Positions 11,416-55,608 are shown, counted from the first letter of the stretch. The stretch is 64,000 bases of DNA from Flavobacteriales bacterium (GCA_965661855.1 CBFIFL010000003.1:4614-68613); one strand, 5' to 3'. Numbers and translations are program-made. Notes: generated by a model not told the origin, from the letters alone.

Positions 11416-11522
11416 TGGATAGTGCATAGTGTGTGGGGTAAAGGGGACAAATTGCTTAAATAAAAGACCTTGTTTCCCAGATCTTTTTCCTAATCACTAA
11501 TCCCTACCTACTAAGCACTAAT
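11412..11522. repeat. Second copy of the inverted (TAGTG)n...(CACTAA)n element, upstream of accC.
   Basis: ttagtggatagtgcatagtgtgtgg ... ~50 nt ... cctaatcactaatccctacctactaagcactaat. Confidence 0.5.
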
Positions 11523-11528
11523 AAAAAG

Positions 11529-11536
11529 TATATTTG
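11529..11536 (+). promoter_or_regulatory. Candidate Bacteroidota sigma-A -7 box (TAnnTTTG) for the biotin carboxylase gene.
   Basis: TATATTTG lies 21 nt upstream of the ATG at 11557. It sits immediately downstream of the ACTAAGCACTAA repeat motif. Confidence 0.35.
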
Positions 11537-11556
11537 TGAATCAGAACACTTGATCA

Positions 11557-15430: not shown

Positions 15431-16615
15431 CTAAATATTCCATTTTAACTGTCCGAAAAAGGTATGACTCAATCCGCTTGGACCAATCAAGCCTTGTATC
15501 GCACGAGCTTGTAAGTTAATGTCAAATTTACTTTGACTAAAGTTAATACCCAAGCCAAAATGTTCGTTTGTAAATCCACCATAACCAATATGGAAAGAAG
15601 GTTTGATTAGCTCATTAACCTTATACACATAATTCAACTGAAGGTGAGGGAAGTAAACAGCATTTAACACCTGATCAAAGCTTATCTGAATTTCAGATTT
15701 AGATACTTTCTTTACATAATACAAGGTAAGTTTAGCCGGTGTTAATCTCATTTGAGATCCCGTTTCTGCATTAGGAATTAAACTGTCTACATCTGTAGTT
15801 AAGTTGAGCATTGAATCACTAGGTGATAGTAGGTTGTTTATTTCTATACCAGTAAATGAGTAGCTACTATCCAATGTGTAATCGAGAGATTGTTTATTGA
15901 ATGAGATAAAGCCTAAGTCATTAATTGATCCACCAATTTGATCACCATTTTTTAATGTCTTTTCATAAAAAAAGTCACCTTTTAATCCTGTCCCATTCCA
16001 TGCTGAAAGATTCGTTTTACTAGTGTCAGATGTCTTCATTGAGCCACTTAGTATAAAATCTAATTGACTAGCATTAGTACTCGTAAATAAAGAAGATTGT
16101 GGACTATCTAAATCAATAAACTGTGAACCTTTAACTATTCCTAAGCTAAATCCAATCTTTTGATTTTCTGTTAAACGATACAGACCAAAGTCAATACTTT
16201 GATAGGCCAAGTAGTTCATTTTAAGTCCATCAAACGAAGCTGTATTATTAGCAAACATTCCGTTTCCATAAAAGACCGTATTAAATAGGTCATCAGAAAA
16301 AGAGCTAGCTACAAACTGTCGGTGGCTAAGTCCGATTGACGGTTTCCAATCATGGTAGATAGAGTCTTTACCAAACCAAGTGGATTTAAGAGAAATATCG
16401 ACTCCAAATCTATTTTTATCAGACAAGTTGGCACGCGTGTTATTTTTCAATTCATTCGTAATAAACTCGCCTTGATAGAAGGCTTTAATAAAATCAGATC
16501 GAATAGCCGAAGAAGACAGATCGATATAAGATTCAATTACAACTTGATGACTTGAGTCGTCTTGAGCTTTAAGTTGGAATCCAATTAAAGCTATAAGTAT
16601 AATTATAAGTTTCAT
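15431..16615 (-). CDS. Hypothetical outer-membrane β-barrel protein: signal peptide, alternating amphipathic strands, C-terminal aromatic residue.
   Basis: MKLIIILIALIGFQLKAQ signal peptide, ends ...QLKWNI. Overlaps the upstream lipoprotein gene by 4 nt. Confidence 0.45.
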   Translation of the reverse strand: MKLIIILIALIGFQLKAQDDSSHQVVIESYIDLSSSAIRSDFIKAFYQGEFITNELKNNTRANLSDKNRFGVDISLKSTWFGKDSIYHDWKPSIGLSHRQFVASSFSDDLFNTVFYGNGMFANNTASFDGLKMNYLAYQSIDFGLYRLTENQKIGFSLGIVKGSQFIDLDSPQSSLFTSTNASQLDFILSGSMKTSDTSKTNLSAWNGTGLKGDFFYEKTLKNGDQIGGSINDLGFISFNKQSLDYTLDSSYSFTGIEINNLLSPSDSMLNLTTDVDSLIPNAETGSQMRLTPAKLTLYYVKKVSKSEIQISFDQVLNAVYFPHLQLNYVYKVNELIKPSFHIGYGGFTNEHFGLGINFSQSKFDINLQARAIQGLIGPSGLSHTFFGQLKWNI

Positions 16616-18765
16616 TGATTGATGATATAGTTGAAGTCAGCAGTTAACTGAAGGTCAATTGAATAATAATCGTAGATTTTTGCAGTCGGATGATCTAATT
16701 GAACCTGAATCAAAAGTTGACTAGCTTCAAATATTTGACTTAAATCAGCAGAAGTAAAAGAGAAGTGAATTTCTGAAGAAGCACTTTGACTCACTTTTCC
16801 ATTCGATCCCAGTACTCCAGAGGCAATAGTTTCGTCAGAAATTAAATCAAGTAAAGGACTTCCTAATTCGTCTAACAAAGTTAAACTACTAACTGCTTCA
16901 ATTGGAAAGCCATTATCAATTAATAGGGTAAAGGTTCCTGATTGAATAGCGGTTTGATTTTCTTGGTTGATTGAGAACTCTGTCGTATCTACCAATGTTA
17001 ATTGGTTAGAAGCGAAATGTAAAGGTATTTCAACATTCATACTTGCAGAAAGTACTCCATCAAAATAAATGAAGTTTGGAGGAGTCGCAACAATATCTGC
17101 AATAGAAGGGTCGGAGGCAATTAAGCTGTTTTGTTCAATCTCAACATTGTAGCTTAGTTGATTAGGTAGATTTTCAATAAATTCTTCAATATTTGAGTTT
17201 GAAGCATCAAGCGTTAAAGAGCTGGTTTCAGTTGTAAATGGTGGAGTACCTCCAGTCAATTGAGCAGGATTCACTAGGAAGCCATTATTTAAATCTGCAC
17301 TAACTAAATCAACTTCTGATCCTGTTGATGAGTTAATTGATTTTAACTGACTTAGTCGCATATTAGCATCAGCTCCAATTTGGTTGTTTACCTCAAGATT
17401 AACGGAAACGTCATTCAGATCAATACTTCCTCCAGTGATGTTAGATAGTAAATCGAAATCAATTATTTCAGGACCAAATTGGACTGTATCCTTACCTAAG
17501 TATCCAATACCATAGTCTCCAATAAGATTTAATATTTTAACCTCAAACCTTAAGCTATCCGATAAAGCAAGAGAAACGATTTGTCCGGTAGAATCAATTC
17601 TACCAGTTAAGTACTGGCAGTATGTATTGACAGTGTCCGTATCGATAATTTCATTACCATTAATATCCATTCCAGCATCTCTTTCAATAGGAGCAAATCC
17701 TCTTAAGTCTAATACGTAGTCATCAAATGGAACTTGGAAAACCGAAATAGAAGCATCACTAGGAGTAGCAGGAGGAATGGTATTGTCCATGTTTAAATGC
17801 ATTCCATCTTTAAGCGCTCCAGGCATTTGTAAATTAAAGAACATTGAGTCTTCAATTGTTGAAATAGCGGTTACTTCTAAAAGCCCGGTTTTAACCCTCA
17901 TAGAAGATAACTTGATTTCACCTAAACCTTTCATAGGACTGTAATCCCATTTGTCAACAATATTTTGTTCTGGGAAAATAGCTGTAGCAGATAAAGGAGT
18001 GATATCTCTAATCGAAATGGTCGGAATTAAAGCATCAGATGTATCAATGGTGATAAATCCACCAGAACCTGGGCTAGACATTTCAACGATTTGGGCTACA
18101 ATATTCCCTTGAATCGTTTGTCCGTGAAGTTCATAGGTAGCAGACACTGATGATCCAGAGGCGATTAAAGGAAAAGTGTCTTGTGCGATGAAGTTAACAG
18201 AACCTTGGTTTTTCAATTGGAAAACAATATTGGTAATGTCCATCGGAAGTTCATTCAGTATATGAAGGTCCATATAACCAGAGTCGATCTCAATAGACTC
18301 AAAGTAAGAGGAAGCATCGATGGTTATTTCTCCAGTAGAAAGAGGTGTAGGGTCACCAAGAGGAGGTATAATTCCAATTCCTCCATTGTTCAAAATGATA
18401 GCATTACCTAAAACTCCTAAATCAGGATTAGAAGCAATTTGTCCCAAGCTAATAGGGTATACAATGGTTTGATCTCCAAGTTCAAGATTCTCAACGCTGG
18501 CAGAATAAGCCATGGTGGTATCTCTAAATTTGATCATTGAATCCAATCCATAATTATAGATTGTATTTCTGAAGACCATGCTAATAGAGCTGTCACCAGC
18601 AATGTTTACGATTGAATCAGAAAGGATGTTTTGAATGCTAAGAGAAGATGATGCAATTGGTGCGAGTGCATTAATTTCCCAAGATGCTTCCTCATAGTTT
18701 GGTCGACAAGAGAAAACAAAAACAGAGCACAGCCAAATGGCTAGCAATAATTTTAAGTACTTCAT
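16612..18765 (-). CDS. Hypothetical large lipoprotein (717 aa), Ser/Thr/Asn/Gly-rich and β-rich.
   Basis: Lipobox-type signal MKYLKLLLAIWLCSVFVFSC. No recognisable catalytic motif. Confidence 0.45.
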   Translation of the reverse strand: MKYLKLLLAIWLCSVFVFSCRPNYEEASWEINALAPIASSSLSIQNILSDSIVNIAGDSSISMVFRNTIYNYGLDSMIKFRDTTMAYSASVENLELGDQTIVYPISLGQIASNPDLGVLGNAIILNNGGIGIIPPLGDPTPLSTGEITIDASSYFESIEIDSGYMDLHILNELPMDITNIVFQLKNQGSVNFIAQDTFPLIASGSSVSATYELHGQTIQGNIVAQIVEMSSPGSGGFITIDTSDALIPTISIRDITPLSATAIFPEQNIVDKWDYSPMKGLGEIKLSSMRVKTGLLEVTAISTIEDSMFFNLQMPGALKDGMHLNMDNTIPPATPSDASISVFQVPFDDYVLDLRGFAPIERDAGMDINGNEIIDTDTVNTYCQYLTGRIDSTGQIVSLALSDSLRFEVKILNLIGDYGIGYLGKDTVQFGPEIIDFDLLSNITGGSIDLNDVSVNLEVNNQIGADANMRLSQLKSINSSTGSEVDLVSADLNNGFLVNPAQLTGGTPPFTTETSSLTLDASNSNIEEFIENLPNQLSYNVEIEQNSLIASDPSIADIVATPPNFIYFDGVLSASMNVEIPLHFASNQLTLVDTTEFSINQENQTAIQSGTFTLLIDNGFPIEAVSSLTLLDELGSPLLDLISDETIASGVLGSNGKVSQSASSEIHFSFTSADLSQIFEASQLLIQVQLDHPTAKIYDYYSIDLQLTADFNYIINQ

Positions 18766-25982: not shown

Positions 25983-28301
25983 ATGAAGAATTTACTAACC
26001 ATTTTAAGCGTGTTCTTATGCGCTTCTGTTTTCGCTCAAATCAATACTGAACTTTTAGGATCCTTTTCCTACGAATCATCACTAAGTGATATTTGGGGAT
26101 ATATAGATGAAGATGGAAATGAATATGCTTTGGTAGGAAAAAGGAATGGAGTTTCAGTAGTTGATGTTAGTGACCCAGCTAATCTTGATGAAGTATTTGT
26201 TGTGGATGGACCTAGTTCTATTTGGAGAGATTTGAAAGTGTGGAATGATCATGCTTATGTAACAAATGAAACAGGGAATGGACTTTTGATAATTGATTTA
26301 TCTCCATTACCAACAAGTCATGATTTACCTGTGGTCAGATATACTGATGGAGGTTGGGACAATGCACATAACTTATACATTGATGAAAATGGAATCTGTT
26401 ATATTTTTGGAGCGGATAGAGATAATGGTGGAGTTATAATGTATGACTTAACGCAACATGCTACGGAATTAGTTGAAGTAGGAAAGTTTGAGAATTGGTA
26501 CGTTCATGATGGCATGGCAAGAGGAGACACTTTGTACTTGGGGCATATTAATGACGGAATTTTTTCGATAGTTGATGTGTCAGATAAACAAAATCCAGTT
26601 TTACTAGGGACGAAAGTAACCTCATTCAACTTCACTCATAATGTGTGGGTATCTGATGATGGTGATTATTTGTTTACAACGGATGAGAGAAGTGATGCGT
26701 ATATCGGCGCATATGACATCACGGACTTAAACGATATTGAGGAAGTAGATTTATATCAATCGAGTGAGGGTGGTGTTATACCACATAATGTTCATTATCT
26801 AGACGGTTTTTTGGTTACATCATATTATCGTGATGGATTAGATATTACAGATGTTTCAAGACCGAATAATATCATTAGAGTTGGTTCTTATGATACCGCT
26901 GATGATATGGAAGGGAATGGATTTAACGGAGCTTGGGGTGCTTATCCTTATTTGCCTTCTGGAAACATTTTAGTATCTGATATTGAAAAAGGTTTGTTTG
27001 TCATTGGATTCAATTACGAGAGAGCTTGTTTTTTAGAAGGACGGGTATTCAGAGAAGGAAGCAGTGTTCCTTTAAATCAAATTAACGTCAATGTGGCAGA
27101 TTTTTCTACTCAAACCGATATTTCAGGAGAGTTTTTGACAGGTACACCAAACGCAGGGAATTACGATGTGACTTTTTCAAGACAAGGATATTTACCAAAA
27201 ACCTTAAATCTTGATTTAGTAAATGGAGAGCTAATTGATACCACCGTTTATTTGGAACTGGATACTCGATTTGGAATAACTATCGAAGTAGTTGATCAAG
27301 ATGGAATAGCGCTTTCTGATGTGAATGTCCACCTTTATGCTCAAGTAGATACATTTAATACCGTATCTAATGATTCTGGGTATGCTTTCGTGGATAATGT
27401 ATTTCCTGCGGATTATATTGTCCATACAGGAAAATGGGGATATCAAACTACCTGTGATTCCGTTTATTTTGATGAGCTAGATTCCATGGAGACAGTTACC
27501 ATTGAAGAAAGGTATTATGATGATTTTTCAATGGATTTTTCATGGGAGATTAATAGCACAGCGAGTAAAGGAGCTTTTGTAAGAGAAAAGCCAAATCCTA
27601 CATTTGATGATGGAAGCAGTGTACAGCCTGGTTATGATGCTTACGGTGATTGTTTTGATTTCGCATTTATTACAGGGAACTCCGATACGGAAGAAATTGC
27701 AGAGGATGATATTGACGATGGAATGACAAGTATTTCATCCCCAATAATGGATTTGTCATCAAACACGAATACATTTATTAACTATTACCATTGGCTTTAT
27801 TTAAAAAGCTTTGGTTCTCAAAATCCGAATGATTCTTTAAATGTTTGGGTAACAAATGGAGCGGATAGTGTGATGATTGAATCGTTTGATCATTCTTCAG
27901 CTCAAAGAGATTGGGTTTATTCATCCATACAAATTGATGGTCTGATTGATGTTACAGATGAAATGCGTGTTCACTTCATTGCTGCAGATAACAGTCCTGG
28001 ACACGTTTTCGAGGTAGGAATAGATGTATTTAGCGTTTCAGAGGAGGAGTTACAGAGCACAACAGATAAAGTATCAAGCAAAAATAGAATCCTGCTATAC
28101 CCAAACCCGATGTTAACAGGAGAACAAATGAATTTCAATCGTATACTTTCCAGGGTTGAGGTTTACAACATGACTGGTCAGTTGGTTTTAGAGAATGAAA
28201 ATCAATCTGGTATTTCGACAAAAGGACTTAAATCAGGAATGTATATAGTTAAGCTTATCGACGGAAGTTATGAACAGATCGATAAGGTGATTTTGAAGTA
28301 G
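25983..28301 (+). CDS. Secreted T9SS substrate: N-terminal LVIVD-repeat β-propeller-like region plus a C-terminal T9SS type-A sorting domain.
   Basis: Signal peptide; repeated ...GLLIIDLS / GGVIMYDLT / GIFSIVDVS / GLDITDVS... motifs; C-terminal ...ILLYPNPMLTGEQMNFN...VEVYNMTGQLV...GMYIVKLIDG... CTD. Confidence 0.7.
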   Translation: MKNLLTILSVFLCASVFAQINTELLGSFSYESSLSDIWGYIDEDGNEYALVGKRNGVSVVDVSDPANLDEVFVVDGPSSIWRDLKVWNDHAYVTNETGNGLLIIDLSPLPTSHDLPVVRYTDGGWDNAHNLYIDENGICYIFGADRDNGGVIMYDLTQHATELVEVGKFENWYVHDGMARGDTLYLGHINDGIFSIVDVSDKQNPVLLGTKVTSFNFTHNVWVSDDGDYLFTTDERSDAYIGAYDITDLNDIEEVDLYQSSEGGVIPHNVHYLDGFLVTSYYRDGLDITDVSRPNNIIRVGSYDTADDMEGNGFNGAWGAYPYLPSGNILVSDIEKGLFVIGFNYERACFLEGRVFREGSSVPLNQINVNVADFSTQTDISGEFLTGTPNAGNYDVTFSRQGYLPKTLNLDLVNGELIDTTVYLELDTRFGITIEVVDQDGIALSDVNVHLYAQVDTFNTVSNDSGYAFVDNVFPADYIVHTGKWGYQTTCDSVYFDELDSMETVTIEERYYDDFSMDFSWEINSTASKGAFVREKPNPTFDDGSSVQPGYDAYGDCFDFAFITGNSDTEEIAEDDIDDGMTSISSPIMDLSSNTNTFINYYHWLYLKSFGSQNPNDSLNVWVTNGADSVMIESFDHSSAQRDWVYSSIQIDGLIDVTDEMRVHFIAADNSPGHVFEVGIDVFSVSEEELQSTTDKVSSKNRILLYPNPMLTGEQMNFNRILSRVEVYNMTGQLVLENENQSGISTKGLKSGMYIVKLIDGSYEQIDKVILK

Positions 28302-35227: not shown

Positions 35228-35899
35228 TTGAATATTGTCATATTATTATTTGCTTATCTGTTAGGATCTATACCCAGTGCTATATGGGTGGGTAAGCGAT
35301 TTTATAATATTGATGTAAGAGAATACGGTAGCGGAAACGCTGGAGCAACCAATACTTTCAGGGTTTTAGGAAAGAAGGCAGGTATTCCGGTTTTGATCAT
35401 GGATATTATCAAAGGCTTTGTTGCTGTTAACTTCGTTAGACTTCAAGATTTTTACACAGTTGATGATTTAGGGTACACCAATTTACAGTTGATGTTGGGG
35501 ATTCTAGCTGTTGTCGGACATATATTCCCTGTATTTGCAGGATTTAGAGGAGGTAAAGGTATTGCAACCTTATTAGGTATTATCATTGCTGTTCACCCAG
35601 TTGGAGCAGGTGTTGCAATCGCCCTTTTCTTAGTCATTTTACTATTAACAAAGTATGTAAGTTTAGGATCGATGTTAGGGGCTGTGTCATTTCCTTTAAC
35701 AGTTATTTTAGGTCATGATGCTGTTGACGGAAGACTTGCGCCAGCCTTAATTATCTTTTCAATACTTATTGCCATTCTTGTATTACTGACACATCAGAAA
35801 AATATAGCACGCTTATTGCGTAACGAAGAGTCAAAAACTTATTTATTTGGTAAAAGGGATAAAGCGAGTGTCTTCGATTCAGAGGAAGATAATGATTAG
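35228..35899 (+). CDS. plsY: Glycerol-3-phosphate acyltransferase PlsY.
   Basis: ...GSGNAGATNTFRVLG... and ...GGKGIAT... Confidence 0.85.
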   Translation: MNIVILLFAYLLGSIPSAIWVGKRFYNIDVREYGSGNAGATNTFRVLGKKAGIPVLIMDIIKGFVAVNFVRLQDFYTVDDLGYTNLQLMLGILAVVGHIFPVFAGFRGGKGIATLLGIIIAVHPVGAGVAIALFLVILLLTKYVSLGSMLGAVSFPLTVILGHDAVDGRLAPALIIFSILIAILVLLTHQKNIARLLRNEESKTYLFGKRDKASVFDSEEDND

Positions 35900-35955: not shown

Positions 35956-38900
35956 ATGCATAAAAAGCTATATCATATAGTGTTTTTGTGCCTTTTTGTT
36001 ATATCCTTAATTCCTAGTGAATTGAGGGGACAGGGTACTCAAGATTTTGAGAACGAAAAGGAACTCATAAAGGTAGCGGACAAACACTTCGAAAAAGAAG
36101 AGTTTGTATCGGCGCTTTTTATGTACTCTCAATTGGCGTCAACATATCCAAAAAATTACGAATACAATTATCGCTACGGAGTCTGTTTATTATACGGTTC
36201 TGAGGATAAATCAAGTCCCATTATTTTCCTGAATTATGCTCTTGAAGGTCCTGATGTTTCTCCTAAAGTCTATTATTACTTAGGAAAGTCTTATCATCTA
36301 AGCTATCGCTTTGATCAAGCCATTAAATACTATAAACTATTTGAATTGAAGTATGCTGAGAAAGACTTTATGAGGTTTGAAACCGATCGATTGATCCAAC
36401 AATGTGAGACGGCTAAGTCGATGTTGGATAATATCAAGGAAATCAATGTTTACGATAAAAAGACATTGGATGATAAGGAATTCTTTAGAGCTTATCGTTT
36501 AGAAGGTTTTAAAGGAAATATACTTGTTGTACCTGTTGAAATTCAGTCTGATTATGATATCAAGAAGGAGTTTAAAACAGTAACCTTCCATAATCCAAAT
36601 TATGAGTCCATTTACTTTGCTTCTAAAGGAAAGAAAGGAAGTGGAGGTTCTGATATATATAAGAGGAATAAACTGGTTACAGGTGTTTGGGGAGAACCAA
36701 TAGCTCTTGGAATGAATGTTAACACTCGTTACGATGAGAACTATCCTTTCTTACATCCGGATGGAGTAACGCTTTATTTCTGTTCGAAAGGACATAATTC
36801 AATTGGTGGATATGATGTGTTTAAATCGAAGTTAGATACTGCCACTAATATCTGGGGTAAACCAAGCAACGTAGGTTTTGCTATTAACTCACCTGGGGAT
36901 GATATTATGTATGTGACCGATGAGTTTAAGAACGCAGCTTATTTTGCCTCTAATCGTTCGAACAGACAAGGAGAGATTACAATTTATAAGATAACGAGTG
37001 ATAAGAAAACGAAGAATTATAAGGTTATCAAAGGTTTACTTAATCAGGATGAACAACCTTTAGCTAATTCAGAGATTACAGTATTTGATTCAAAGACAGG
37101 GGAAGTTGTCGGAGTTTATCAATCTGATTTTGACGGTGAGTACTATATAACCATTCCGGAAGATGTTACAGAAATCGTTTATGAAGTCAAACTGAGAGGA
37201 GAGAAAACGGTGAGACAAGAAATAAGCGGATTAAGCGATGAAGGCTACGAACAGAAAATATCAATTGATTCAGAGTCTTTATCAATGATCATTACAGAAT
37301 CTGAACCAATTGAAATTTCAGCTGATGATAAGGCCAATGCTTTAGCTCAGAACTCATCTCTGAATGTTAATCAAGCTGAAGATATCGCATTTAACACCAA
37401 GCCTATTAATTATAACGCTAATGAGGAGGAAGAGGAGGAAGAGGCTGAAGCGGTTGAGGAAGTCGAACAATCTGCCTTTTCTGCAGATACGGATTATACT
37501 ATTGATACCGATTCTGATTCTGATAATGAATCAGAATCAGAGTTTGTAGCTTCTAATACACAAATAGTTGACGATGCCTATCAAGATGCTGAAGAATCAA
37601 GGCTAGATGTTGAGAATATTAAAAAGCAGTTGGACGTTGCATACATGATTGCATCGGATAAGAATGAGAAAGCGAAAAGACTAGCTAGTGATATTCAAAA
37701 GTTAAACAAGGACTTAGAAGCAGGGTACGACGAAGAAAAGGCGATGGAAGTTTCTGCTAAAGAAGCAGAGCTTACGAAGCTTAAACAAGAGGTTTTGGTT
37801 ACTTATAATGTAGCTAAGAATCTAGAAGAGAACTACAAGAATAAAGAGGAAGAGGCTGTATTTGCACAGAAGTATGCAGACGATTTAAAGGAGGCTATTT
37901 CATTATCAAGTGCAGAAAAAGCAATTGAGATGTTAGAGTCGACTCGAGAAGAGTTAGACCGTATCTATAAAAAGAACAAGGATGCTTTTAATATTGATGA
38001 TTTAGGTGGTGATGCTGATGAGAAAATTGTATCTCTAAAACAATTGTCTCAAGATGTGGATTCTGAAATTAGTGCTATCGTAGAGGAGCAAACAGCTATT
38101 AAGCAAAGAGCTGAAGAAGAAACAGAGGATTATGTGAAGCAGTCTATTTTACTGGAGGCAGAAGACTTAGAAGAAGAGTTGATTACTTTAAGATCAAAGA
38201 AGTCCAAAATCGACGGAGAGTTAGCTTCTATTGAATCGGAACAACAACAATTTACGGAGAACCAAGAAATATTTGATGAGATTGCTTCAGCTGAATCAAG
38301 AAACTTCAGTATGGAAGAGATTCAAAAGGCTGAAGAGGCTAAGAGTGATTTAAGTAAGGATGTTGAAATCTACGCGAATAGTGAAACAACTGAAGACATG
38401 ATTGAGAGTTTAGCTGATGAAAATGAAGGAGAATTAGCAATAACATCGGATGATGAGAATCCAAGTTTGGATGAAATAAATGAGCATTTTGATGAGATAG
38501 AGGAGAAGGAAGAATTCAGTCCGGTTGAAAAACTTGCAGAGTTAAACGGTAAAGTGAAAATTCAGGAAAGAAGGTTGAGGTCTAAAAAGGAAGAATTGGA
38601 TATTTTGGAAAGTACACTTGAAAACGAAACAGACTTGAATGTTAAATCTGATATCTACAAACAATTGGTGATTCTAGTGAACAAGACAGAAGAAGAGATG
38701 GATCGTTTGAAGGAATTACAAGGGGATTACAATGCTTACAATGAACAGGAAGGTTTGAATCAGCCTGACTTAGAAATTAAGGAGACAGTCGTTGAATCGG
38801 TTGTTCTGAGTGATTCAGGGGAAATGATCGATTTTGATACTTTCTTAGAAGAAATAGAGGCAGAGCAATTAGCATCAGCGAATGCTGAAGAAAGTGAGAG

Positions 38901-41900
38901 TGGAAGCGATGATGCAATTGTAGCTGTGAGTCCTGATGTCACGGAAGTAATTGAAGTAGAGGCAGACGAGTTAAATGGTAATACGGATTCGGTGGATTTA
39001 GCAACGGAAATAGATGAGCCTTCAGACGAGGAGGAAGCTGTTGAACTGAGTGATGAAGAAATTGCCAGTAGTTCTTTTGAAACGTTAAATGAAGAGCAAC
39101 AGCTTTATAAATTGGAGCTTGAATTCGATATGGATTCATCAAGTAATGAAGATGTTCAACGAGGTTTAGAGTTAGCTTTCGGACTTAAAACGGATCCGAA
39201 TTTTGAATACGGTCCTAATGCAATTGTTCAAGCAAACGTAAATAACGCTAGAAGATTGGAACGTCAAGCCTTAAATACTTATCTACTGTTTAAAAAGAAA
39301 AGAAAAGAGGCGGATGAGCAAATAAAAGCATCTAAGGCCAAGAAGATGATTGAGGAAGCGATTGAATTAGAAAGTGAATCTAAACGTTTACAAGAAAGTG
39401 CTTCAGCTAATTACGCTATTGCAAACAAGGAGGAGTTCAAGTACAACCAAACTCAATTGAGAACAGCAATTGCAACGTTTAAATTTGAAGAGACACCAGA
39501 ATACTCCGTTGATAGAAAAGCTGGAGAGGTTTTGATTGAAGAAACAACAAGAATCAGATCAGCTTTAATGACAACTTATGATGCTGATGAAAGAATTAAA
39601 AAAATCAATGATGCTTATAATAAAGAGTTAGCGGCGATCGCAGGACAAAAGAAGTATGTGGAGCGTTTAGGTCAAGAAGAGGACGTGGAAGAGTCGTTTG
39701 TTTACTTGAATGAAGGAGAAAGTAACCCGACAAATGAAGACTTAGAAAGTGGTCAATCAGAAACGGAGAATACTGACGAAATCGAGAGTGTGAGTGCAGA
39801 AGAAGGTCCGTTTATAGCTGGGACAGATGAGGAGGTTTTATCAATGGAAGAAGTTAATTCAATGAGTGATGAAGAGTTGTTGACAAAAGCGGATAATCAA
39901 ACGATTGAAGGAATCGCGAGTACTGCTTTAAATATCAGATCAAATATTTCTACAGCTCCAGAAGAAGATAAAGCTAAGTTGATGCAACGAGCGGCTTTGT
40001 TAGAAGAAGTTGCTAGAACGAAAAGATTGAAGTTTGTTCAGAAAGAATACAACGATTACTTGTTGATGCTGAAGAAGAATGAAGAGGTTAGAAGAAGAAT
40101 GGCTATGCGTGATGAAAATAGCGAGGCTTTATTCTTAGTAGGATTGGTAGAAAGAGACATTAAAACTCAAACGGAGGCATTAGAGAAAAGTAAGGAAGAT
40201 TTAGATTTGTATTCTGGAGAAACACAGATCAGTGCATATAAAACAGCCTTGTTAAACCAACAAATGATAATCAATAAGCAAACTCAGGTATTAAAGACAT
40301 ACGCCGAGAAAAATCCTGCAGTAAGTACTGAGGATTTGGCTTATGTAAATGCTTTACCAGATACGATTCAGAATGTATCATCTAATTTTGTAATCGTCGA
40401 TTCAAATGACCCAGATTTACTGATTACTGATAGTCCTGAAGAAGTAAGTCCTGAAGTAGAAGTTGTTGAACCAGAAATTGCTTCAACTGAAATACCAGAA
40501 CCTGCTGTTATAAGTGGTGAAGAAGAAGGTGAAGGTGATGAAGAAGCTAATGAGGAATTGGCTTTAAACATCCAAACAGAGAACAATACAGAGGAAGGCG
40601 AGGAGCTAACTGTTGGTGATAGTGATGAGTCGGATGAAAATAACGAGCTTGTTAATGAGGAGATAGCTAGTGAAGTAGTTTCTGAAACTGCTGTTGATTC
40701 AAATGAAGAAATTCAGAGTCCTGTTGTTGAAGAAGTTGCAGTAGCACCAGTTACTGAAGAGGAAGAAGCCTTGAGTCCAGAGGTTCAAGAGCAACTGAAA
40801 ATATACACGCAGTTAAAAGCGAAGTCACTTAAAGAGTATACGGTAGTTGAATCGGATATTCAAAAAGCTCAAGAGATTCAGAATGAAGCAATAGAATTAG
40901 AGAATGAGGCAGATAATAAATTAAGACAAACAGAGTCTGCTCAAACTGAAGCTGAAATTGAGGCATTGATTGCAGAATCAGATAAGTTAAGAGCTAAAGC
41001 AATTGACAAAAGAAAGAAAGCAAATCGTTTGGCGGCTAAAGTGGATAACGATTTAGCTTCAGCTAAAAGCGTTTATAGAGAAGCTCAGAAAGTATTGAAT
41101 TCTGATGTGGTTCAAGCAAATGTTGAAGATGGAGATCGTATTGATATTGATTACACCAGTATTGAAAGACAAAGAGAGTCCATTGAGGCAGTAGATGAGT
41201 TTGTTGCTGAGTTAGAATCAAACAGAGCGGCAAATCAAAACACAAGTTCATCAAGAACCATAACAGCTCCATTTGAAAGTGAATATATTGTTTTGAATGG
41301 TGACGCGAAATATTCTGATGCGAATCCAATACCTATAGATCCAGCTATGCCAGAAGGTTTAGTGTTTAAGGTTCAGGTAGGAGCATTTAGAAATAAGATT
41401 CCACAAGACTTGTTTAAAGGAATTGCTCCATTACAAGGGGAGTCTACTCCTCAAGGATTTATTAGATATACAGCTGGAGCATTTAGTGGATTTGAGCCAG
41501 CCAATATGGCTAAGCGAGAGATTAGAAAAATTGGATATAAAGATGCTTTTGTTGTTGTTTACTTAAATGGTAGACGAATTTCATTAGGAGAAGCATTTGC
41601 CATGATGGATAATGAATCTCCAAATGATAAGTCTGTTAGATCAACACAAATTAACAAAGAAGTACAAGAGTTAAATGGAGCGGGAATAGGAGAGTCTTAC
41701 AGAGATCCAAGCATAGCAGAGTTAGTTCAAGATATCAATGAGACTAAAGGTGTAATGTATACGGTGCAGATTGGTTATTACTCTGAGTCTATTCAACCTG
41801 AGAACTTATTCAATTTAGATCCAATTTACGAAGACGATAATGATGGAGGTTATAGATACATGCATGGGATTTATAAGGATTTGAAAGCTGCTTCTAATCG

Positions 41901-42303
41901 TAAGACAGAAGTTAGAGCAATTGGAATCGAAGATGCATTCGTAATAGCTTATAAGGACGGTAATAAGATTTCAGTGGCCGATGCTAATCGTTTGATTGAT
42001 GAAGGAGCCTCTACTGTGGATGGCTCAAAGGAGTATAAGTTGAATACGGAGAATACTTCTGGAATTGTCTATAAAGTTCAAGTAGGTGCCTACTCTCAGC
42101 AAGTACCATTAGAAAGAGCTATGATATTTGTTCAGTTTGCGGATCAGGGCATAGAGCACTTCCAAAATGCAAATGGACTTACAATCTATAGTATTGGTGG
42201 CATGGATTCATACCAAGCTGCCCAATCGTTGAAAGAAACAATTCAAGCAGCTGGTATCGTAGATGCTTTCATTACTAAATACAGTAACGGGAAGAGGTTG
42301 TAA
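35956..42303 (+). CDS. Giant (2115 aa) cell-envelope protein: signal peptide, TPR-like helical region, PD40/TolB-like β-propeller repeats, ~1400-aa acidic (E/D-rich) coiled-coil/low-complexity spacer, three C-terminal SPOR domains.
   Basis: Signal MHKKLYHIVFLCLFVISLIPSELRGQ; PD40-like ...SDIYKRNKLVTGVWGEPIALGMNVNTRYDENYPFLHPDGVTLYFCS...GGYDVFKS...; SPOR-like ...LVFKVQVGAF..., ...YTVQIGYY..., ...IVYKVQVGAY... each followed by ...DAFV... segments. Confidence 0.7.
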   Translation: MHKKLYHIVFLCLFVISLIPSELRGQGTQDFENEKELIKVADKHFEKEEFVSALFMYSQLASTYPKNYEYNYRYGVCLLYGSEDKSSPIIFLNYALEGPDVSPKVYYYLGKSYHLSYRFDQAIKYYKLFELKYAEKDFMRFETDRLIQQCETAKSMLDNIKEINVYDKKTLDDKEFFRAYRLEGFKGNILVVPVEIQSDYDIKKEFKTVTFHNPNYESIYFASKGKKGSGGSDIYKRNKLVTGVWGEPIALGMNVNTRYDENYPFLHPDGVTLYFCSKGHNSIGGYDVFKSKLDTATNIWGKPSNVGFAINSPGDDIMYVTDEFKNAAYFASNRSNRQGEITIYKITSDKKTKNYKVIKGLLNQDEQPLANSEITVFDSKTGEVVGVYQSDFDGEYYITIPEDVTEIVYEVKLRGEKTVRQEISGLSDEGYEQKISIDSESLSMIITESEPIEISADDKANALAQNSSLNVNQAEDIAFNTKPINYNANEEEEEEEAEAVEEVEQSAFSADTDYTIDTDSDSDNESESEFVASNTQIVDDAYQDAEESRLDVENIKKQLDVAYMIASDKNEKAKRLASDIQKLNKDLEAGYDEEKAMEVSAKEAELTKLKQEVLVTYNVAKNLEENYKNKEEEAVFAQKYADDLKEAISLSSAEKAIEMLESTREELDRIYKKNKDAFNIDDLGGDADEKIVSLKQLSQDVDSEISAIVEEQTAIKQRAEEETEDYVKQSILLEAEDLEEELITLRSKKSKIDGELASIESEQQQFTENQEIFDEIASAESRNFSMEEIQKAEEAKSDLSKDVEIYANSETTEDMIESLADENEGELAITSDDENPSLDEINEHFDEIEEKEEFSPVEKLAELNGKVKIQERRLRSKKEELDILESTLENETDLNVKSDIYKQLVILVNKTEEEMDRLKELQGDYNAYNEQEGLNQPDLEIKETVVESVVLSDSGEMIDFDTFLEEIEAEQLASANAEESESGSDDAIVAVSPDVTEVIEVEADELNGNTDSVDLATEIDEPSDEEEAVELSDEEIASSSFETLNEEQQLYKLELEFDMDSSSNEDVQRGLELAFGLKTDPNFEYGPNAIVQANVNNARRLERQALNTYLLFKKKRKEADEQIKASKAKKMIEEAIELESESKRLQESASANYAIANKEEFKYNQTQLRTAIATFKFEETPEYSVDRKAGEVLIEETTRIRSALMTTYDADERIKKINDAYNKELAAIAGQKKYVERLGQEEDVEESFVYLNEGESNPTNEDLESGQSETENTDEIESVSAEEGPFIAGTDEEVLSMEEVNSMSDEELLTKADNQTIEGIASTALNIRSNISTAPEEDKAKLMQRAALLEEVARTKRLKFVQKEYNDYLLMLKKNEEVRRRMAMRDENSEALFLVGLVERDIKTQTEALEKSKEDLDLYSGETQISAYKTALLNQQMIINKQTQVLKTYAEKNPAVSTEDLAYVNALPDTIQNVSSNFVIVDSNDPDLLITDSPEEVSPEVEVVEPEIASTEIPEPAVISGEEEGEGDEEANEELALNIQTENNTEEGEELTVGDSDESDENNELVNEEIASEVVSETAVDSNEEIQSPVVEEVAVAPVTEEEEALSPEVQEQLKIYTQLKAKSLKEYTVVESDIQKAQEIQNEAIELENEADNKLRQTESAQTEAEIEALIAESDKLRAKAIDKRKKANRLAAKVDNDLASAKSVYREAQKVLNSDVVQANVEDGDRIDIDYTSIERQRESIEAVDEFVAELESNRAANQNTSSSRTITAPFESEYIVLNGDAKYSDANPIPIDPAMPEGLVFKVQVGAFRNKIPQDLFKGIAPLQGESTPQGFIRYTAGAFSGFEPANMAKREIRKIGYKDAFVVVYLNGRRISLGEAFAMMDNESPNDKSVRSTQINKEVQELNGAGIGESYRDPSIAELVQDINETKGVMYTVQIGYYSESIQPENLFNLDPIYEDDNDGGYRYMHGIYKDLKAASNRKTEVRAIGIEDAFVIAYKDGNKISVADANRLIDEGASTVDGSKEYKLNTENTSGIVYKVQVGAYSQQVPLERAMIFVQFADQGIEHFQNANGLTIYSIGGMDSYQAAQSLKETIQAAGIVDAFITKYSNGKRL

Positions 42304-42310
42304 TGTCTAT

Positions 42311-42550
42311 TTATTCAGTAAAATGTTTCTTCCAATCTAGATCCATTTCTTTGAAGCGTTCCAAACATTTCATCATATACTCATTAATAACGAATTGATC
42401 TATTTCTTCTGTTCCTTTTGGAAGTTCTGATTGATCTATTTTGAAGCCTTGAACATATGGTCCGTATTCCACTTGAAGTAGGTATTTCTCTGATAGACTG
42501 AACAATGAAATCTTGAAAGCTGGATGTGGAATGTTTTTTACTAATCTCAT
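42311..42550 (-). CDS. Hypothetical small protein (79 aa).
   Basis: Clean ORF convergent on the giant gene; no motif. Confidence 0.3.
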   Translation of the reverse strand: MRLVKNIPHPAFKISLFSLSEKYLLQVEYGPYVQGFKIDQSELPKGTEEIDQFVINEYMMKCLERFKEMDLDWKKHFTE

Positions 42551-42612
42551 ACTATTTTTTTAAAACAAAATTTGACAGACAGCGTATAAAGCGCCTACGT
42601 TAAAGCAAAGGT

Positions 42613-44860: not shown

Positions 44861-47464
44861 TTACCACATCCATCGACGTGAATTTCTAAAGTAAGTGTTA
44901 AACCCGACTTTTATTCTCGTATCAAATACATTATCGGTATTGCCTAGTTTAAATACTTGATAAATTCCTATTTTATTCCTCGACCCGAAGATTTTGTATT
45001 CCCTTGAAATTCCAGCGAATGCTTCAACATGTAAAAGGTCTTGTTCTTTAGTATATAAGAATGAACCTCCTACATCCGTTTTCAGTTTTAATTTTTTGAA
45101 TAGCGGGATTTGATTTAAAATAGCTCCATTAAAATGGTGAAGGTAATGACCTTGGAACGTCCAATCTCTTGTGAAAATAGTCGTGTCTAATAAGCTATAT
45201 GCGTTGATAGGGTGTTGTAGAAAATAATTATCTGATGCTATGAACGATTTTCTAGCCAGGAAAATTTCACTTGCTTCACCATAAGATTTACTCATATCAA
45301 ATGCGTACCTGCTTTCACCCACAACACCAGTGGTAATGGTTTGGTCAAAACCAAAACTAAGTTTGGTGTAATTGAAAGCACTACCGGCAAAATCCGGAAT
45401 ACCTTGATGAATAGATCCATAGAACTCAGGCCATTTTGAACCTAAGATAACTTTTCGCTTAGGCTCCATGTAATATTTTTGTTTAGGTCTAAACAAGAGT
45501 CGAAACCCTGTTTCAAATTGGTTAAAAGGGTCGAAAGCAAGAGGTGTTATGTTATTGAAAGCCATGTTTACCCATTCGTAGCTTTCCATTTCATGAACGG
45601 AAGTGATTTTTGAATAGGATATTTGACCTCTAATATAAAAGCCATTTACTATTTCTCTCATGGCTGCGATATATCCACCTTCATTTCGATAGTAATTAGC
45701 AATGCTGGCCTGTTCTAAACTCATACTAAAGGATCCATTTATAAACTGGTATTCTTTAGCAATATCTGCATAGATCCAAGTGGGCTTCACGGCATCAATC
45801 ATCGAAGCTCCCGCAAAGTTATAGGTTATATCCTCATTTAAATACCCATAACTAGCTTGTCCTTCAAGGTTTAACTTCTTTTCATTTTTAAAGGTCTTTT
45901 GTGATCCAAAATATAGTCCGTTTCTATATCCTCCTATTTGCAGGATCGATTCGATATCGAATATGTCAGTCAACGTAGGGAACAAAAATCGAATGTTTTT
46001 CTCTCTGTTATAATACTCGAAGTTGTATATAATATTATCAGGGGTAAAAGTATTGTTTGCCGAGTCAAGGGAGTCTAAATAAACTTTAGAATTCTGTACT
46101 TGAAAGAGCGAGTCTCTGTACGCGATGACTTTTATTTCGGCTTTAGACAATGGTTCTGGACGGATGTTCTCCCAATAGGAACTGTCTTGGTCAACAGCCT
46201 CTTGGCTAGTGATTAGTAAAGCATTATTAAAAAACTTTTTACCGTAATCTTTATTGAATTCGAAGTCTGAATACCTAACAGTGGTGTTCCCAACCAGCTT
46301 ACTTGCTCTTAAATAGTAAGTGAATTCTTGACGATTTACCAACCACATGCTGTCATTAATCCATTCGTATTCTTGTTGAATTCTAAATTTATCGTAATAG
46401 TTTAAAGCGTAATTGTTCAACTTTAAATCTATTTTATAGATAGCAAAGGAACCGTCCAAAATATGAATTTCACCTTCAAACAAAGCCGTTTGATTTCTTC
46501 TTGGTGTTACTTTTATGTGGTGTATGTATCGACCATTTTCTCCATAAGATTTAATCAACTTAAACTTATACGGTAGGGCAGAGCCTTTGCTTAAAGGACT
46601 CACGATTGGGAAGTCACTAAGAATTTCAACATGAACTAGGTTTTCATAAAAATCAAAATGACCTTCTGCAGTGGTTAGGTAAAAAAGATTCCAGTAATTA
46701 CCTGCCGTTTTAAAACCTTCACGTATTTCCTTTACATCCTTTCCGGCTTCATAATACCGCTTAGCATAAACTTCTGCAAAGCTCATACGAGCTTCGGCTT
46801 TAGGACTGTAAGTCTTTTGAGGGACGCTGTCTTTTTGCAGTGAATCTACTTTAGAAGTATCTTTTTTTTCGAAAAGTTTCTTTAACCAACGTTCTCTGTT
46901 CTTCTCTTTTTCGGCTCTTAAGGCTGTTTTGACGGAGTCTTTTTCAAGTTTTTGTGCGTATCTACCATAATTGTCTTTCAGCTCCTCCCGATTCATTGGT
47001 CTCATTACCCCTTTGATGTAAATATTTGACTCAGTTGTTGAGAATTGAAATTGATTGGATTCCTTGTTTTCTATTGCTTGCTTAATTATAGCATAAGCTG
47101 GGTCTCGTCTTTTCTTCTTTATGGTTACCTCTTCCAGCTCAACAGACTTCTCTTTTAAATAGACGTTTTGAACTTGATCTTTATTAATAACTGTAATCTC
47201 GAACTTTTTAGTTTCATAACCGATTGCAGAGAAAACAATGCTGTAAAATCCATTCTCCAGTTTTAATTCGTATTTCCCATCTAGCTCACTGGATACTCCG
47301 TATTGCATTTCAGTATGGGATGACCTATCTGCATTAAAGACTTGAATGGAAGCGAAAGGAATAGCTTCATTGTTTTCATTTAATACAAAGCCTCTTACAA
47401 AACGATATTGTGAGAAACTCGAAAAAGCAAAAAGCAAGAAGCTAAGGATAAGAGTCGTTTTCAT
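44861..47464 (-). CDS. DUF5686 family protein with an N-terminal carboxypeptidase-regulatory-like domain.
   Basis: Signal peptide, then ...VRGFVLNENNEAIPFASIQV... (CarbopepD_reg-like), and a long β-rich C-terminal region. Confidence 0.65.
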   Translation of the reverse strand: MKTTLILSFLLFAFSSFSQYRFVRGFVLNENNEAIPFASIQVFNADRSSHTEMQYGVSSELDGKYELKLENGFYSIVFSAIGYETKKFEITVINKDQVQNVYLKEKSVELEEVTIKKKRRDPAYAIIKQAIENKESNQFQFSTTESNIYIKGVMRPMNREELKDNYGRYAQKLEKDSVKTALRAEKEKNRERWLKKLFEKKDTSKVDSLQKDSVPQKTYSPKAEARMSFAEVYAKRYYEAGKDVKEIREGFKTAGNYWNLFYLTTAEGHFDFYENLVHVEILSDFPIVSPLSKGSALPYKFKLIKSYGENGRYIHHIKVTPRRNQTALFEGEIHILDGSFAIYKIDLKLNNYALNYYDKFRIQQEYEWINDSMWLVNRQEFTYYLRASKLVGNTTVRYSDFEFNKDYGKKFFNNALLITSQEAVDQDSSYWENIRPEPLSKAEIKVIAYRDSLFQVQNSKVYLDSLDSANNTFTPDNIIYNFEYYNREKNIRFLFPTLTDIFDIESILQIGGYRNGLYFGSQKTFKNEKKLNLEGQASYGYLNEDITYNFAGASMIDAVKPTWIYADIAKEYQFINGSFSMSLEQASIANYYRNEGGYIAAMREIVNGFYIRGQISYSKITSVHEMESYEWVNMAFNNITPLAFDPFNQFETGFRLLFRPKQKYYMEPKRKVILGSKWPEFYGSIHQGIPDFAGSAFNYTKLSFGFDQTITTGVVGESRYAFDMSKSYGEASEIFLARKSFIASDNYFLQHPINAYSLLDTTIFTRDWTFQGHYLHHFNGAILNQIPLFKKLKLKTDVGGSFLYTKEQDLLHVEAFAGISREYKIFGSRNKIGIYQVFKLGNTDNVFDTRIKVGFNTYFRNSRRWMW

Positions 47465-53964: not shown

Positions 53965-55608
53965 GTGAGAAGTATGAAGTTTCTAATTACATCTGTTTTC
54001 TTTTTATTAATGGGTCTGACTGTAAAGTCTCAGGTTCACGGTGAAGTGAAATGGATTGAAGGGAAGAAGTATACTTATCACCAAGTAAAGACACAAGAAA
54101 CCTTATACGGTATTTCGAAAAAATACGGTGTACGAATCAGTGAAATCCTTTTGAGTAATCCAGAAGCTATTGAAGGGATTAAGCCGGAAATGCTTTTAGT
54201 TATGCCTCCAGTAAAAGTTTTGGAAGATGCTACTGAACGAGTTCAGTTACAAGGAAACTTGTTGTATCATGAAGTAAAAGCTCAAGAAACTATATATGGT
54301 ATTTGCCAAGAATATGGGGTTGAAGAGGATGATCTAAAACGTGTAAACGATTTATCAGACGGTTTGAAAGTCGGAGCTCGATTGATTATTCCTTTTGAGG
54401 ATGAGTTAGCTAAACTTGCTGATGAAGATTCTTTAAGTGGTAAAAAAGTAATCAAGTCAGAAATGTTATGGGGAGCTGATTCAGCAGAATTAGATTCATT
54501 TGATTTGAACGTAGCGTTAATTCTTCCTTTGTATTTAGATGAAAATGATTCGATTGAAATAAATAAAGAAGAGACCGATGATCCTCGTCTACCAAAGTAT
54601 ACTCCCATTTCTTTACAGTTTATGTCTGGAGTTTATATGGCATTGGATAGCATAACCAAGCAAGGCTATGATATAAGATTAAACGTTATAGATTCTAAAC
54701 CAGATGCGCTAGACTTTAAAAAGCAGTTGGATGAAAACAGTTTCTCAACGTATGATTTAGTAATTGGACCGGTTGTGAATGAATACTTTGATCACTTTAT
54801 GCAAAAGAAAGATTCGGGTCAATATGCCATTTTAGCTCCGTTTAGTAAGGATACGAGTATCTTAAATAACCCAAGAATTATTAAGTCTATGGCGAACCGT
54901 CAGTCTGAAATAGACTGCATTGGAAAGTACTTAGGAGAGAATAAAGGTGCTGCTAATATTGTGTTTGTTTATGAAAGCACAACTAAACCTGATTACGCGG
55001 AAGTGGAGTACCTGCAAAAGGAAATGACTTTATCGGCTTTAAGTCATGGTAAAGATTCTTTAATTCGAATGCCTAGAAGAGCCAATTTCAGGTCTTTAGG
55101 TTTAAATGGAATCGTAACAAACTTTACGGATACTCTAGAAAATATTGTAGTTGTACTTAGTCAAAGTCAATCTTTTTTGACTTCAATGATGCAGAAATTA
55201 GAGCCATTTGTGGAGGATTTTGAGATTACCATTTACGGAACATCTCAATTGGCAGGATACCAATCATTTGAACCAGAATTATTTGAATACTTACATGTGC
55301 ATACGAGTTCAATTGGAAATCTGAACTTAAGAGATTCGATGTATTTAGATTTTGAAAGAGATTATTTCTTCAGGTTTGGAGAAATACCTTCTTTACAGGC
55401 TGTACAAGCTTTTGAGCAGACTTTATTTGTTGGAGAGGAAATTGCTAAACATGGATATTATTCTCCTGGAGTAATAGACGGACAATCTTATCAAGGAATC
55501 TATTCGGATTTCAATTTTAAATGGGTGGAAAGTCATAAAGGAGTGGAGAATCAAACTGCTTTTATGATTAAATTTTCAGACTATCAATTCCTAAGAATCA
55601 ATGAGTAA
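53965..55608 (+). CDS. Secreted protein with two N-terminal LysM domains and a periplasmic-binding-protein-like C-terminal region.
   Basis: Two ...Y.V...ETLYGI...YGV....L...N... LysM repeats after a signal peptide. Confidence 0.6.
   Translation: MRSMKFLITSVFFLLMGLTVKSQVHGEVKWIEGKKYTYHQVKTQETLYGISKKYGVRISEILLSNPEAIEGIKPEMLLVMPPVKVLEDATERVQLQGNLLYHEVKAQETIYGICQEYGVEEDDLKRVNDLSDGLKVGARLIIPFEDELAKLADEDSLSGKKVIKSEMLWGADSAELDSFDLNVALILPLYLDENDSIEINKEETDDPRLPKYTPISLQFMSGVYMALDSITKQGYDIRLNVIDSKPDALDFKKQLDENSFSTYDLVIGPVVNEYFDHFMQKKDSGQYAILAPFSKDTSILNNPRIIKSMANRQSEIDCIGKYLGENKGAANIVFVYESTTKPDYAEVEYLQKEMTLSALSHGKDSLIRMPRRANFRSLGLNGIVTNFTDTLENIVVVLSQSQSFLTSMMQKLEPFVEDFEITIYGTSQLAGYQSFEPELFEYLHVHTSSIGNLNLRDSMYLDFERDYFFRFGEIPSLQAVQAFEQTLFVGEEIAKHGYYSPGVIDGQSYQGIYSDFNFKWVESHKGVENQTAFMIKFSDYQFLRINE

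Follow-up and report, generated by a model that had tools for sequence, protein, structure and literature searches.

Giant proteins predicted to join a PorE-type head to three SPOR domains through a length-conserved spacer form a widely conserved family in Bacteroidota

What might a bacterium do with an envelope protein of 2115 aa, in which a folded head and a block of three SPOR domains are held apart by a spacer of about 1300 aa? The question is raised by one gene in a 64,000-nucleotide stretch of DNA from a Flavobacteriales bacterium (GCA_965661855.1 CBFIFL010000003.1:4614-68613), which we call the window and from whose first nucleotide all coordinates are counted unless another locus is named. 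An original prediction, made from the sequence of the window, had described the product of this giant gene as an envelope protein with a TPR/PD40 N-terminus, a coiled-coil spacer and three SPOR domains, and had suggested that it could be a tether or ruler at the division site. We find that the open reading frame (ORF) is real and that its architecture is shared by a large family, and we tentatively favour a tether over a ruler (Table 1 gives the coordinates of all features).

An ORF with low-complexity acidic runs could be two genes fused across the low-complexity region by an assembly or annotation error, and a chimeric assembly was one of the outcomes that the original prediction had named as overturning it. 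An identical protein of 2115 aa (P0001) is present in an independent Joint Genome Institute (JGI) metagenome. Among the 120 best homologues, lengths range over 1613-3209 aa, and head, long spacer and three SPOR domains were found in 120/120. When we scanned GTDB with one genome per species and two SPOR1 motifs as the probe, at least 537 species had a confirmed locus of the giant gene; among the best 80, the ORF was complete in 65 and measured 1255-2671 aa, with a median of 2081. With the C-terminal 340 aa as the query, an exhaustive search by HMMER returned 814 clusters at 50% identity (E <= 1e-30). The cultured bacterium Aurantibacillus circumpalustris carries the gene on its 4.6-Mb chromosome; otherwise, the gene is found in uncultured Bacteroidia that resemble Flavobacteriales, among them Vicingaceae and Salibacteraceae. 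Hundreds of independent assemblies therefore share the architecture and have spacers of similar length, and complete chromosomes and the genome of a cultured isolate are among them. The DNA itself also argues against a fusion: the frame is open throughout and there is no repeat that could collapse, the only tandem repeat in the ORF being one 22-bp GAGGAGGAA run. Base composition is unremarkable, with a GC content of 0.35-0.39 along the ORF, and the coding strand has an excess of G and A, as expected because the product is rich in Glu, Asp and Lys. The four short ORFs of the GTDB set were considered as shorter architectural variants and turned out to be genes that are broken or truncated; the short entries among the HMMER cluster matches, which match at the extreme C-terminus, are probably contig-end fragments. 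Taken together, we conclude that the giant ORF is real and that its family is widely conserved, under database names that are either hypothetical or "PD40 domain-containing". The metagenomic copy, the GTDB species, the 814 clusters and the Aurantibacillus chromosome effectively rule out a chimera, an explanation to which we give next to no credence.

The N-terminus had been compared with the periplasmic module of OmpA-family proteins of Bacteroidota, and this comparison held. The PD40 family of Pfam was matched at 34.3 bits (34-40 across searches), above its gathering score of 20.9. In an AlphaFold2 (AF2) model of residues 1-800, built from an alignment of 35 homologues with a mean predicted local distance difference test (pLDDT) score of 81.6, the PD40 region at residues 164-350 is all-beta (pLDDT 85-92), and Foldseek gave it weak matches to the tricorn and CRTAC1 propellers. 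The flanking TPR domain and carboxypeptidase-regulatory-like domain (CRD) fell below threshold in Pfam (TPR_2; CarboxypepD_reg, E 0.026), and Foldseek recognized a TPR fold and a transthyretin-like fold with a probability of 1.0 each. Two NCBIfam models were matched in part, over the propeller and CRD only: CHU_0125_OmpA (NF053607) at 98.3 bits across residues 164-403, below its cut-off of 620, and PorE (NF052230) at 89.1 bits, with residues 213-405 aligned to positions 287-471 of the 648 in the model, below its cut-off of 600. In a profile of the family, conservation is highest in the head, and above all in the PD40 module. With these results, we conclude that the head, as modelled, has a TPR domain, a propeller-like PD40 module and a CRD in the order of the PorE/CHU_0125 type.

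PorE, which is PG1058 of the type IX secretion system, or T9SS, and CHU_0125 are among the closest known systems. Like the giant protein they have the order TPR, PD40/WD40 propeller and CRD, a C-terminal module that binds peptidoglycan, and a periplasmic location. Both have been described as lipoproteins (PMC7192894, PMC5891637); the giant protein differs in having no lipoprotein signal, an inserted spacer of ~1300 aa, a shorter propeller and low scores against the family models. In PorE the order is TPR-WD40-CRD-OmpA_C, and PorP is not pulled down without the WD40 domain (PMC12773672). This likeness suggests an accessory role in the T9SS or in gliding, in which the PorE-like head would sit on a barrel of the PorP/SprF family and the SPOR block would fix the complex to the wall at long range. 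The 89-bit PorE match, the binding of PorP by the PorE WD40 domain (PMC12773672), and a T9SS cargo encoded by the host (Por_Secre_tail at 25983-28301) are all consistent with such a role. However, the PorE score is far under the cut-off of 600, OmpA_C and the lipid anchor are both missing, neither the window nor the related loci examined have a T9SS or gliding gene next to the giant gene, and a role in the gliding track would be superfluous given that GldJ/K/N already account for the track (PMC12635249). We consider an accessory role in secretion or gliding improbable.

The C-terminus is where the giant protein departs from the OmpA family. No Pfam OmpA match was found at E <= 1, and three tandem SPOR domains occupy the C-terminus instead, as had been claimed. 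SPOR3 scores 28.1 bits against the Pfam SPOR family (PF05036, gathering score 21) and passes, while in the same protein SPOR1 (18.7-20 bits) and SPOR2 (17.1-17.5 bits) lie slightly under the gathering score; at E <= 0.01, Pfam SPOR was detected in 23/24 SPOR1 orthologues and 8/24 SPOR2 orthologues. Comparison of the three repeats by hhalign gave mutual homology with a probability of 99.7-100%, and family profiles matched the SPOR structure of CwlC (1x60) with E 9.6e-5 for SPOR1 and E 1.4e-3 for SPOR2, FtsN being matched more weakly. An AF2 model of residues 1601-2115 (pLDDT 86.7) has three beta-alpha-beta-beta-alpha-beta units in the tail, a ribonucleoprotein (RNP)-like fold that is canonical in SPOR3 and in which alpha1 of SPOR1 is unclear. 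The best Foldseek match for the tail in the PDB was again the CwlC SPOR domain 1x60 (probability 1.0, TM 0.66). The original prediction had added that the triplication is not recent. Within one protein, the repeats share 31-33% identity, whereas SPOR1 sequences of different orthologues share 44-60%, and thus the triplication predates the family.

The residues that would contact glycan are largely conserved. In our own alignment, the beta1 Gln and the Arg fall at the sequence-motif positions of RlpA Q270/R309 and FtsN Q251/R285, which contact denuded glycan (PMC6895207). The Gln is kept in 120/120 family members at Q1807, 120/120 at Q1938 and 97/120 at Q2042, and the Arg in 118/120 at R1837 and 111/120 at R1967. 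In RlpA and FtsN, the beta1 Gln forms a hydrogen bond with the lactyl group that denuded glycan exposes (PMC6895207). Characterized SPOR domains gather at septa, which are enriched in denuded glycans (PMC6895207; bioRxiv 10.1101/2022.07.01.498525), and a SPOR domain from Bacteroidota, that of CHU2221, binds denuded glycan with a Kd of ~0.8 uM and localizes to the septum of E. coli (bioRxiv 10.1101/2022.07.01.498525). The three SPOR domains would differ from the OmpA_C module of PorE and CHU_0125 in their ligand, which is peptide-free glycan for the former and the stem peptide for the latter.

Between head and tail lies the spacer (residues ~476-1775; 1300 aa), which had been described as an acidic coiled coil of ~1400 aa. 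It is indeed acidic (18% Glu and 8% Asp; net charge between about -203 and -210) and mostly helical, but the evidence is against a single continuous coiled coil. A heptad test placed 19% of spacer residues above the 95th percentile of shuffled sequences. Where the spacer was modelled by AF2, its helices are 23-57 residues long with turns of 3-4 residues between them (pLDDT 80-96), and helix pairs 534-589/593-649, 680-721/725-779 and 1608-1661/1665-1714, in the first and last blocks, form antiparallel hairpins. The helices of the first block, H1, are 534-589, 593-649, 653-675, 680-721, 725-779 and 786-799. Foldseek on the last block, H5, returned the antiparallel coiled coils p85 iSH2 and CT398 with a probability of 1.0. 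A composition scan identified five acidic linkers free of Lys and Arg at residues 483-545, 807-848, 930-1066, 1244-1309 and 1467-1610, which make up ~37% of the spacer. A classifier trained on AF2 secondary structure, with an accuracy of 74-78% across fragments, assigned helix to 54% of residues 801-1600 and to ~63% of the whole spacer, including short helix-like stretches within the linker L3. A family profile of the spacer matched the coiled coils of SMC, BICD and tropomyosin, which indicates that the composition is coiled-coil-like. A continuous rod of the SMC or tropomyosin kind was rejected on the heptad test, the AF2 turns, the Pro and Gly residues (29 and 31, respectively) and the acidic linkers. 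We also considered sequence repeats: hhalign between blocks, with reversed-sequence controls, gave only a weak match between H1a and H5 (probability 79%), and no other comparison was significant. We conclude that the spacer consists of helical blocks alternating with polyacidic disordered linkers, with the helices predicted to pair as hairpins where AF2 models are available.

Comparing spacer length among orthologues had been put forward in the original prediction as a check, and in 181 proteins the length turned out to be conserved, at 912-2415 aa with a median of 1284 and a coefficient of variation of 0.14. The spacer sequence, in contrast, is scarcely alignable outside residues 526-775, with H1 alone reaching moderate conservation in the conservation profile, and net charge in the family ranges from -275 to +21 (median -48), with some members near neutral; the charge of -210 in our protein is near the 5th percentile. 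Because length is conserved and sequence and charge vary, length and helical character look selected, and the extreme acidity is a feature of the lineage and not a trait of the family.

The same data bear on the possibility that the protein is a wall-anchored periplasmic polyanion, acting as a space-filling brush or a buffer of divalent cations, with the head secondary. A net charge near -203 to -210 and the five linkers free of Lys and Arg would suit this role, which we nevertheless regard as very improbable, given that acidity is not conserved (median -48, some members near neutral) while length and both end modules are. As a separate observation, the high acidity of this particular spacer (37393-40776) may be owed to the habitat, such as a saline one, and not to function.

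Where in the cell would such a protein reside? The N-terminal signal peptide has a predicted signal peptidase I cleavage site before Gln26 (..LRG|QG), and in most homologues the signal ends in ..AQ. Cleavage by signal peptidase I according to this "Q-rule" is typical of Bacteroidota. No lipobox was found in our protein, and a permissive lipobox pattern fits 13/185 family members; besides the signal, no further transmembrane-like segment was found in the 185 family proteins. A Pfam search of the giant protein gave no match to the T9SS C-terminal sorting domain (Por_Secre_tail), the C-terminus being SPOR3, and the search works in this genome, since it found this domain in the gene at 25983-28301. 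From the signal type and the lack of a lipobox, transmembrane segment and T9SS sorting domain, we predict that the mature protein is soluble in the periplasm. Within the TPR domain, Cys77 (36184-36186) and Cys150 (36403-36405) are nearly invariant across the family, and the mature protein has just one other Cys. The pair would fit an oxidizing compartment and may form a periplasmic disulfide, either intramolecular or with a partner.

These features led us to propose, tentatively and with confidence that stops a little short of the midpoint, that the giant protein is a soluble, flexible, long-range periplasmic tether between an outer-membrane partner and the wall at the division site. After Sec export and cleavage by signal peptidase I, the protein would be released as a soluble periplasmic molecule. 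The three SPOR domains would bind peptide-free glycan strands, processed by amidases, with avidity, and the protein would thereby be fixed to the peptidoglycan of septa and new poles; wherever they have been studied, such strands mark septa and young poles. By analogy with the docking of the PorE propeller on the PorP barrel, the head would dock an outer-membrane partner, and the spacer would bring partners that lie tens of nanometres away from where the protein is anchored within range of the head. In sum, the cell wall at the division site would become coupled to the outer membrane or to one of its machines. As a rough estimate, five helical bundles of ~8 nm each and five expanded linkers give the spacer a reach of 80-100 nm. 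This is several times the distance from outer membrane to wall, so the molecule would lie along the envelope and serve as a long leash or lateral organizer rather than as a perpendicular ruler; a role as a simple ruler that spans the periplasm is unlikely.

Several observations weigh against a tether at the division site. SPOR3 has no basic residue at the Arg position. The propeller region is ~190 aa, compared with the ~260 aa implied for the WD40 domain of PorE, and its structural matches to propellers are weak. The head lacks the lipid anchor of PorE and CHU_0125, and its association with the outer membrane is proposed purely by analogy. The helicity of blocks H2-H4 comes from a crude composition classifier with an accuracy of 74-78%. 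No conserved functional neighbour that would point to a partner was found in the window, in two complete-genome loci or in the flanks of 83 related loci. Finally, loss of CHU_0125 impairs outer-membrane integrity, and the mutant has no division defect (PMC5891637), which means that a PorE-like head alone does not imply a role in division.

The last point is also the starting place of the main alternative, in which the giant protein is a general stabilizer linking outer membrane to peptidoglycan, a paralogue of the CHU_0125/Pal-like proteins of the OmpA family that has SPOR domains in place of OmpA_C. Such a stabilizer would bind any denuded glycan around the sacculus and maintain outer-membrane integrity, with no specificity for division. 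The 98-bit homology of the head to CHU_0125_OmpA, the hypervesiculation and permeability defect, without a division defect, that follow loss of CHU_0125 (PMC5891637), and the position of the gene amid housekeeping genes speak for this reading. Yet the characterized SPOR domains all concentrate at septa (PMC6895207; bioRxiv 10.1101/2022.07.01.498525), the protein lacks a lipid anchor, and a gap of 10-15 nm needs no spacer of 1300 aa. We therefore hold a general stabilizer to be unlikely, although it is the strongest competitor of the tether.

The proposed tether can be set against other systems that connect envelope layers. FtsN, DamX, DedD, RlpA, CwlC and CHU2221 share with the giant protein the RNP-like SPOR fold with a beta1 Gln and a basic residue (PMC6895207). 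As in SPOR division proteins, the C-terminal SPOR block follows a long low-complexity linker; these proteins, however, have one SPOR domain and an N-terminal transmembrane helix or lipid, whereas the giant protein has three SPOR domains, a cleaved signal and a folded head. Its linker is also, by a rough estimate, ~10 times longer than those of FtsN-type SPOR proteins. In the Tol-Pal system, TolB has a PD40 propeller, CpoB/YbgF a TPR domain and Pal an OmpA_C domain, and we see no specific homology to these beyond the generic TPR and PD40 folds; the giant protein differs in fusing all its domains in one polypeptide and in having no TolA/Q/R context. The effect that we propose for the tether resembles that of Pal/Tol and of PorE-type OmpA proteins, which use other wall-binding domains. 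The polar landmark proteins HubP, FimV and TspA are likewise giant, with a domain that binds peptidoglycan and a very acidic low-complexity region longer than 1000 aa. Their wall binder is LysM, followed by a transmembrane helix, and their acidic region is cytoplasmic, whereas the giant protein has SPOR domains and is predicted to be wholly periplasmic. Braun's lipoprotein, Lpp, is also a helical link between outer membrane and peptidoglycan in which length matters. Lpp is a parallel trimer of 58-residue chains that is lipid-anchored and covalently bound to peptidoglycan. The giant protein is ~35 times longer and is built of hairpins and disordered linkers; long and segmented as it is, it cannot, unlike Lpp, stand perpendicular in the periplasm. 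Literature searches on SPOR domains in Bacteroidota, and on an architecture of head, spacer and three SPOR domains, turned up CHU2221 alone and no description of the architecture. Every domain is of a known kind, and the combination is apparently undescribed in the literature searched, in line with what had originally been claimed for it.

Table 1. Features of the giant gene and its product. Coordinates are positions in the window; residues are those of the full-length protein.
Feature	Residues	Coordinates	Strand	Basis or remark
Whole ORF, 2115 aa and stop codon	1-2115	35956..42303	+	ATG start, open frame throughout
Sec signal peptide (predicted)	1 to ~25	35956..36030	+	Sole hydrophobic segment; AF2 helix 2-21
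TPR domain, ~3 TPRs and capping helix	34-159	36055..36432	+	AF2 helices
PD40-type propeller-like module, ~4 blades by strand count	164-350	36445..37005	+	
CRD, transthyretin-like beta-sandwich	355-452	37018..37311	+	AF2 beta-sandwich
Acidic linker L1, with EEEEEEEAEAVEEVEQ and DSDSDNESESE	480-533	37393..37554	+	AF2 pLDDT <50 at 480-531; free of Lys and Arg
Helical block H1	534-800	37555..38355	+	AF2 pLDDT 80-93; heptad signal 566-603, 679-771
Acidic linker L2	807-848	38374..38499	+	Composition scan
Helical block H2 (predicted)	849-929	38500..38742	+	Heptad signal 857-890; classifier helix 852-888, 897-925
Acidic linker L3, net charge -45	930-1066	38743..39153	+	Composition scan
Helical block H3 (predicted)	1067-1243	39154..39684	+	Classifier helix 1095-1158, 1214-1241; conservation island 1126-1150
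Acidic linker L4	1244-1309	39685..39882	+	Composition scan
Helical block H4 (predicted)	1310-1466	39883..40353	+	Classifier helix 1335-1449; heptad signal 1395-1422; conservation island 1376-1450
Acidic Pro-containing linker L5, net charge ~-47	1467-1607	40354..40776	+	No Lys or Arg in 1501-1600
Helical block H5, hairpin 1608-1661/1665-1714 and helix 1734-1760	1608-1760	40777..41235	+	AF2 pLDDT 93-96
SPOR1	1796-1890	41341..41625	+	Gln1807, Arg1837 at glycan-contact positions
SPOR2	1924-2018	41725..42009	+	Gln1938, Arg1967
SPOR3	2037-2115	42064..42300	+	Gln2042 present, Arg equivalent absent

The neighbours of the giant gene are housekeeping genes. The order in the window is mnmA, plsY, the giant gene and relA/spoT, with a gene for a DUF5686 protein on the opposite strand. 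The plsY gene (35228-35899) lies on the same strand, 56 bp upstream of the giant gene, and this arrangement recurs in 18/83 related loci; the synteny of the two genes is thus conserved in part. In the 309-bp gap between the giant gene and relA (42304-42612), scans for terminator-like hairpins, sigma-70-like promoters and Rfam families all came back empty. A conserved operon partner was looked for and rejected, as two complete-genome loci have no neighbours in common with the window. Clustering of flanks showed that in 44/83 related loci clpS and a gene for an M48 lipoprotein lie downstream on the same strand as the giant gene; at one such locus (L004), a ClpS adaptor (~95 aa) and an M48 metallopeptidase lipoprotein (~266 aa) are encoded at positions 11298-11600 and 11617-12420 of that locus. 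No homologue of either protein was found anywhere in the 64-kb window. Because they are absent from the window and ClpS is cytoplasmic, the linkage is probably lineage synteny and not an obligate partnership.

Other genes of the window deserve brief mention. The nearest relatives of its RelA are 72-77% identical and the next ~62%, which places the host in an uncultured lineage of Bacteroidia. Convergent with relA is the DUF5686 gene (44861-47464, minus strand), whose 867-aa product has an N-terminal CarboxypepD_reg domain. The T9SS cargo gene at 25983-28301 (plus strand) encodes 772 aa with LVIVD repeats, CarboxypepD_reg and Por_Secre_tail, and its presence indicates that the host has a T9SS. 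A 629-aa fusion of DUF5684 and signal peptidase I (Peptidase_S26), long for a signal peptidase I, is encoded at 8927-10816 (plus strand). A 547-aa protein encoded at 53965-55608 (plus strand) has a single LysM domain as its sole Pfam match and is predicted to be another wall-binding protein. The 717-aa ORF at 16612-18765 (minus strand) has no Pfam family at E <= 1e-5.

How the outer membrane is coupled to the wall at division, and what determines the partners of PorE-type heads, are both poorly understood in Bacteroidota. The giant proteins constitute a large unannotated family in which a PorE-type head is joined, through a spacer of conserved length, to three copies of SPOR, the best-established septal targeting domain. 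Should the tether model fail, the family would still be a well-defined new architecture that merits a database family and a name. We can also imagine, as a speculation that we rate doubtful, a hitherto unrecognized class of wall-anchored periplasmic organizers that extend ~100 nm along the sacculus, have a selected length, and determine where Pal-like proteins or machines of the outer membrane sit with respect to the septum or new pole. If true, this class would give Bacteroidota the coupling between outer-membrane constriction and wall synthesis that Tol-Pal gives Proteobacteria. If the giant protein is the tether that we propose, it would provide a direct handle on the coupling of outer membrane to septum in this phylum, and a natural test case for how the length and charge of a linker tune its reach in the periplasm.

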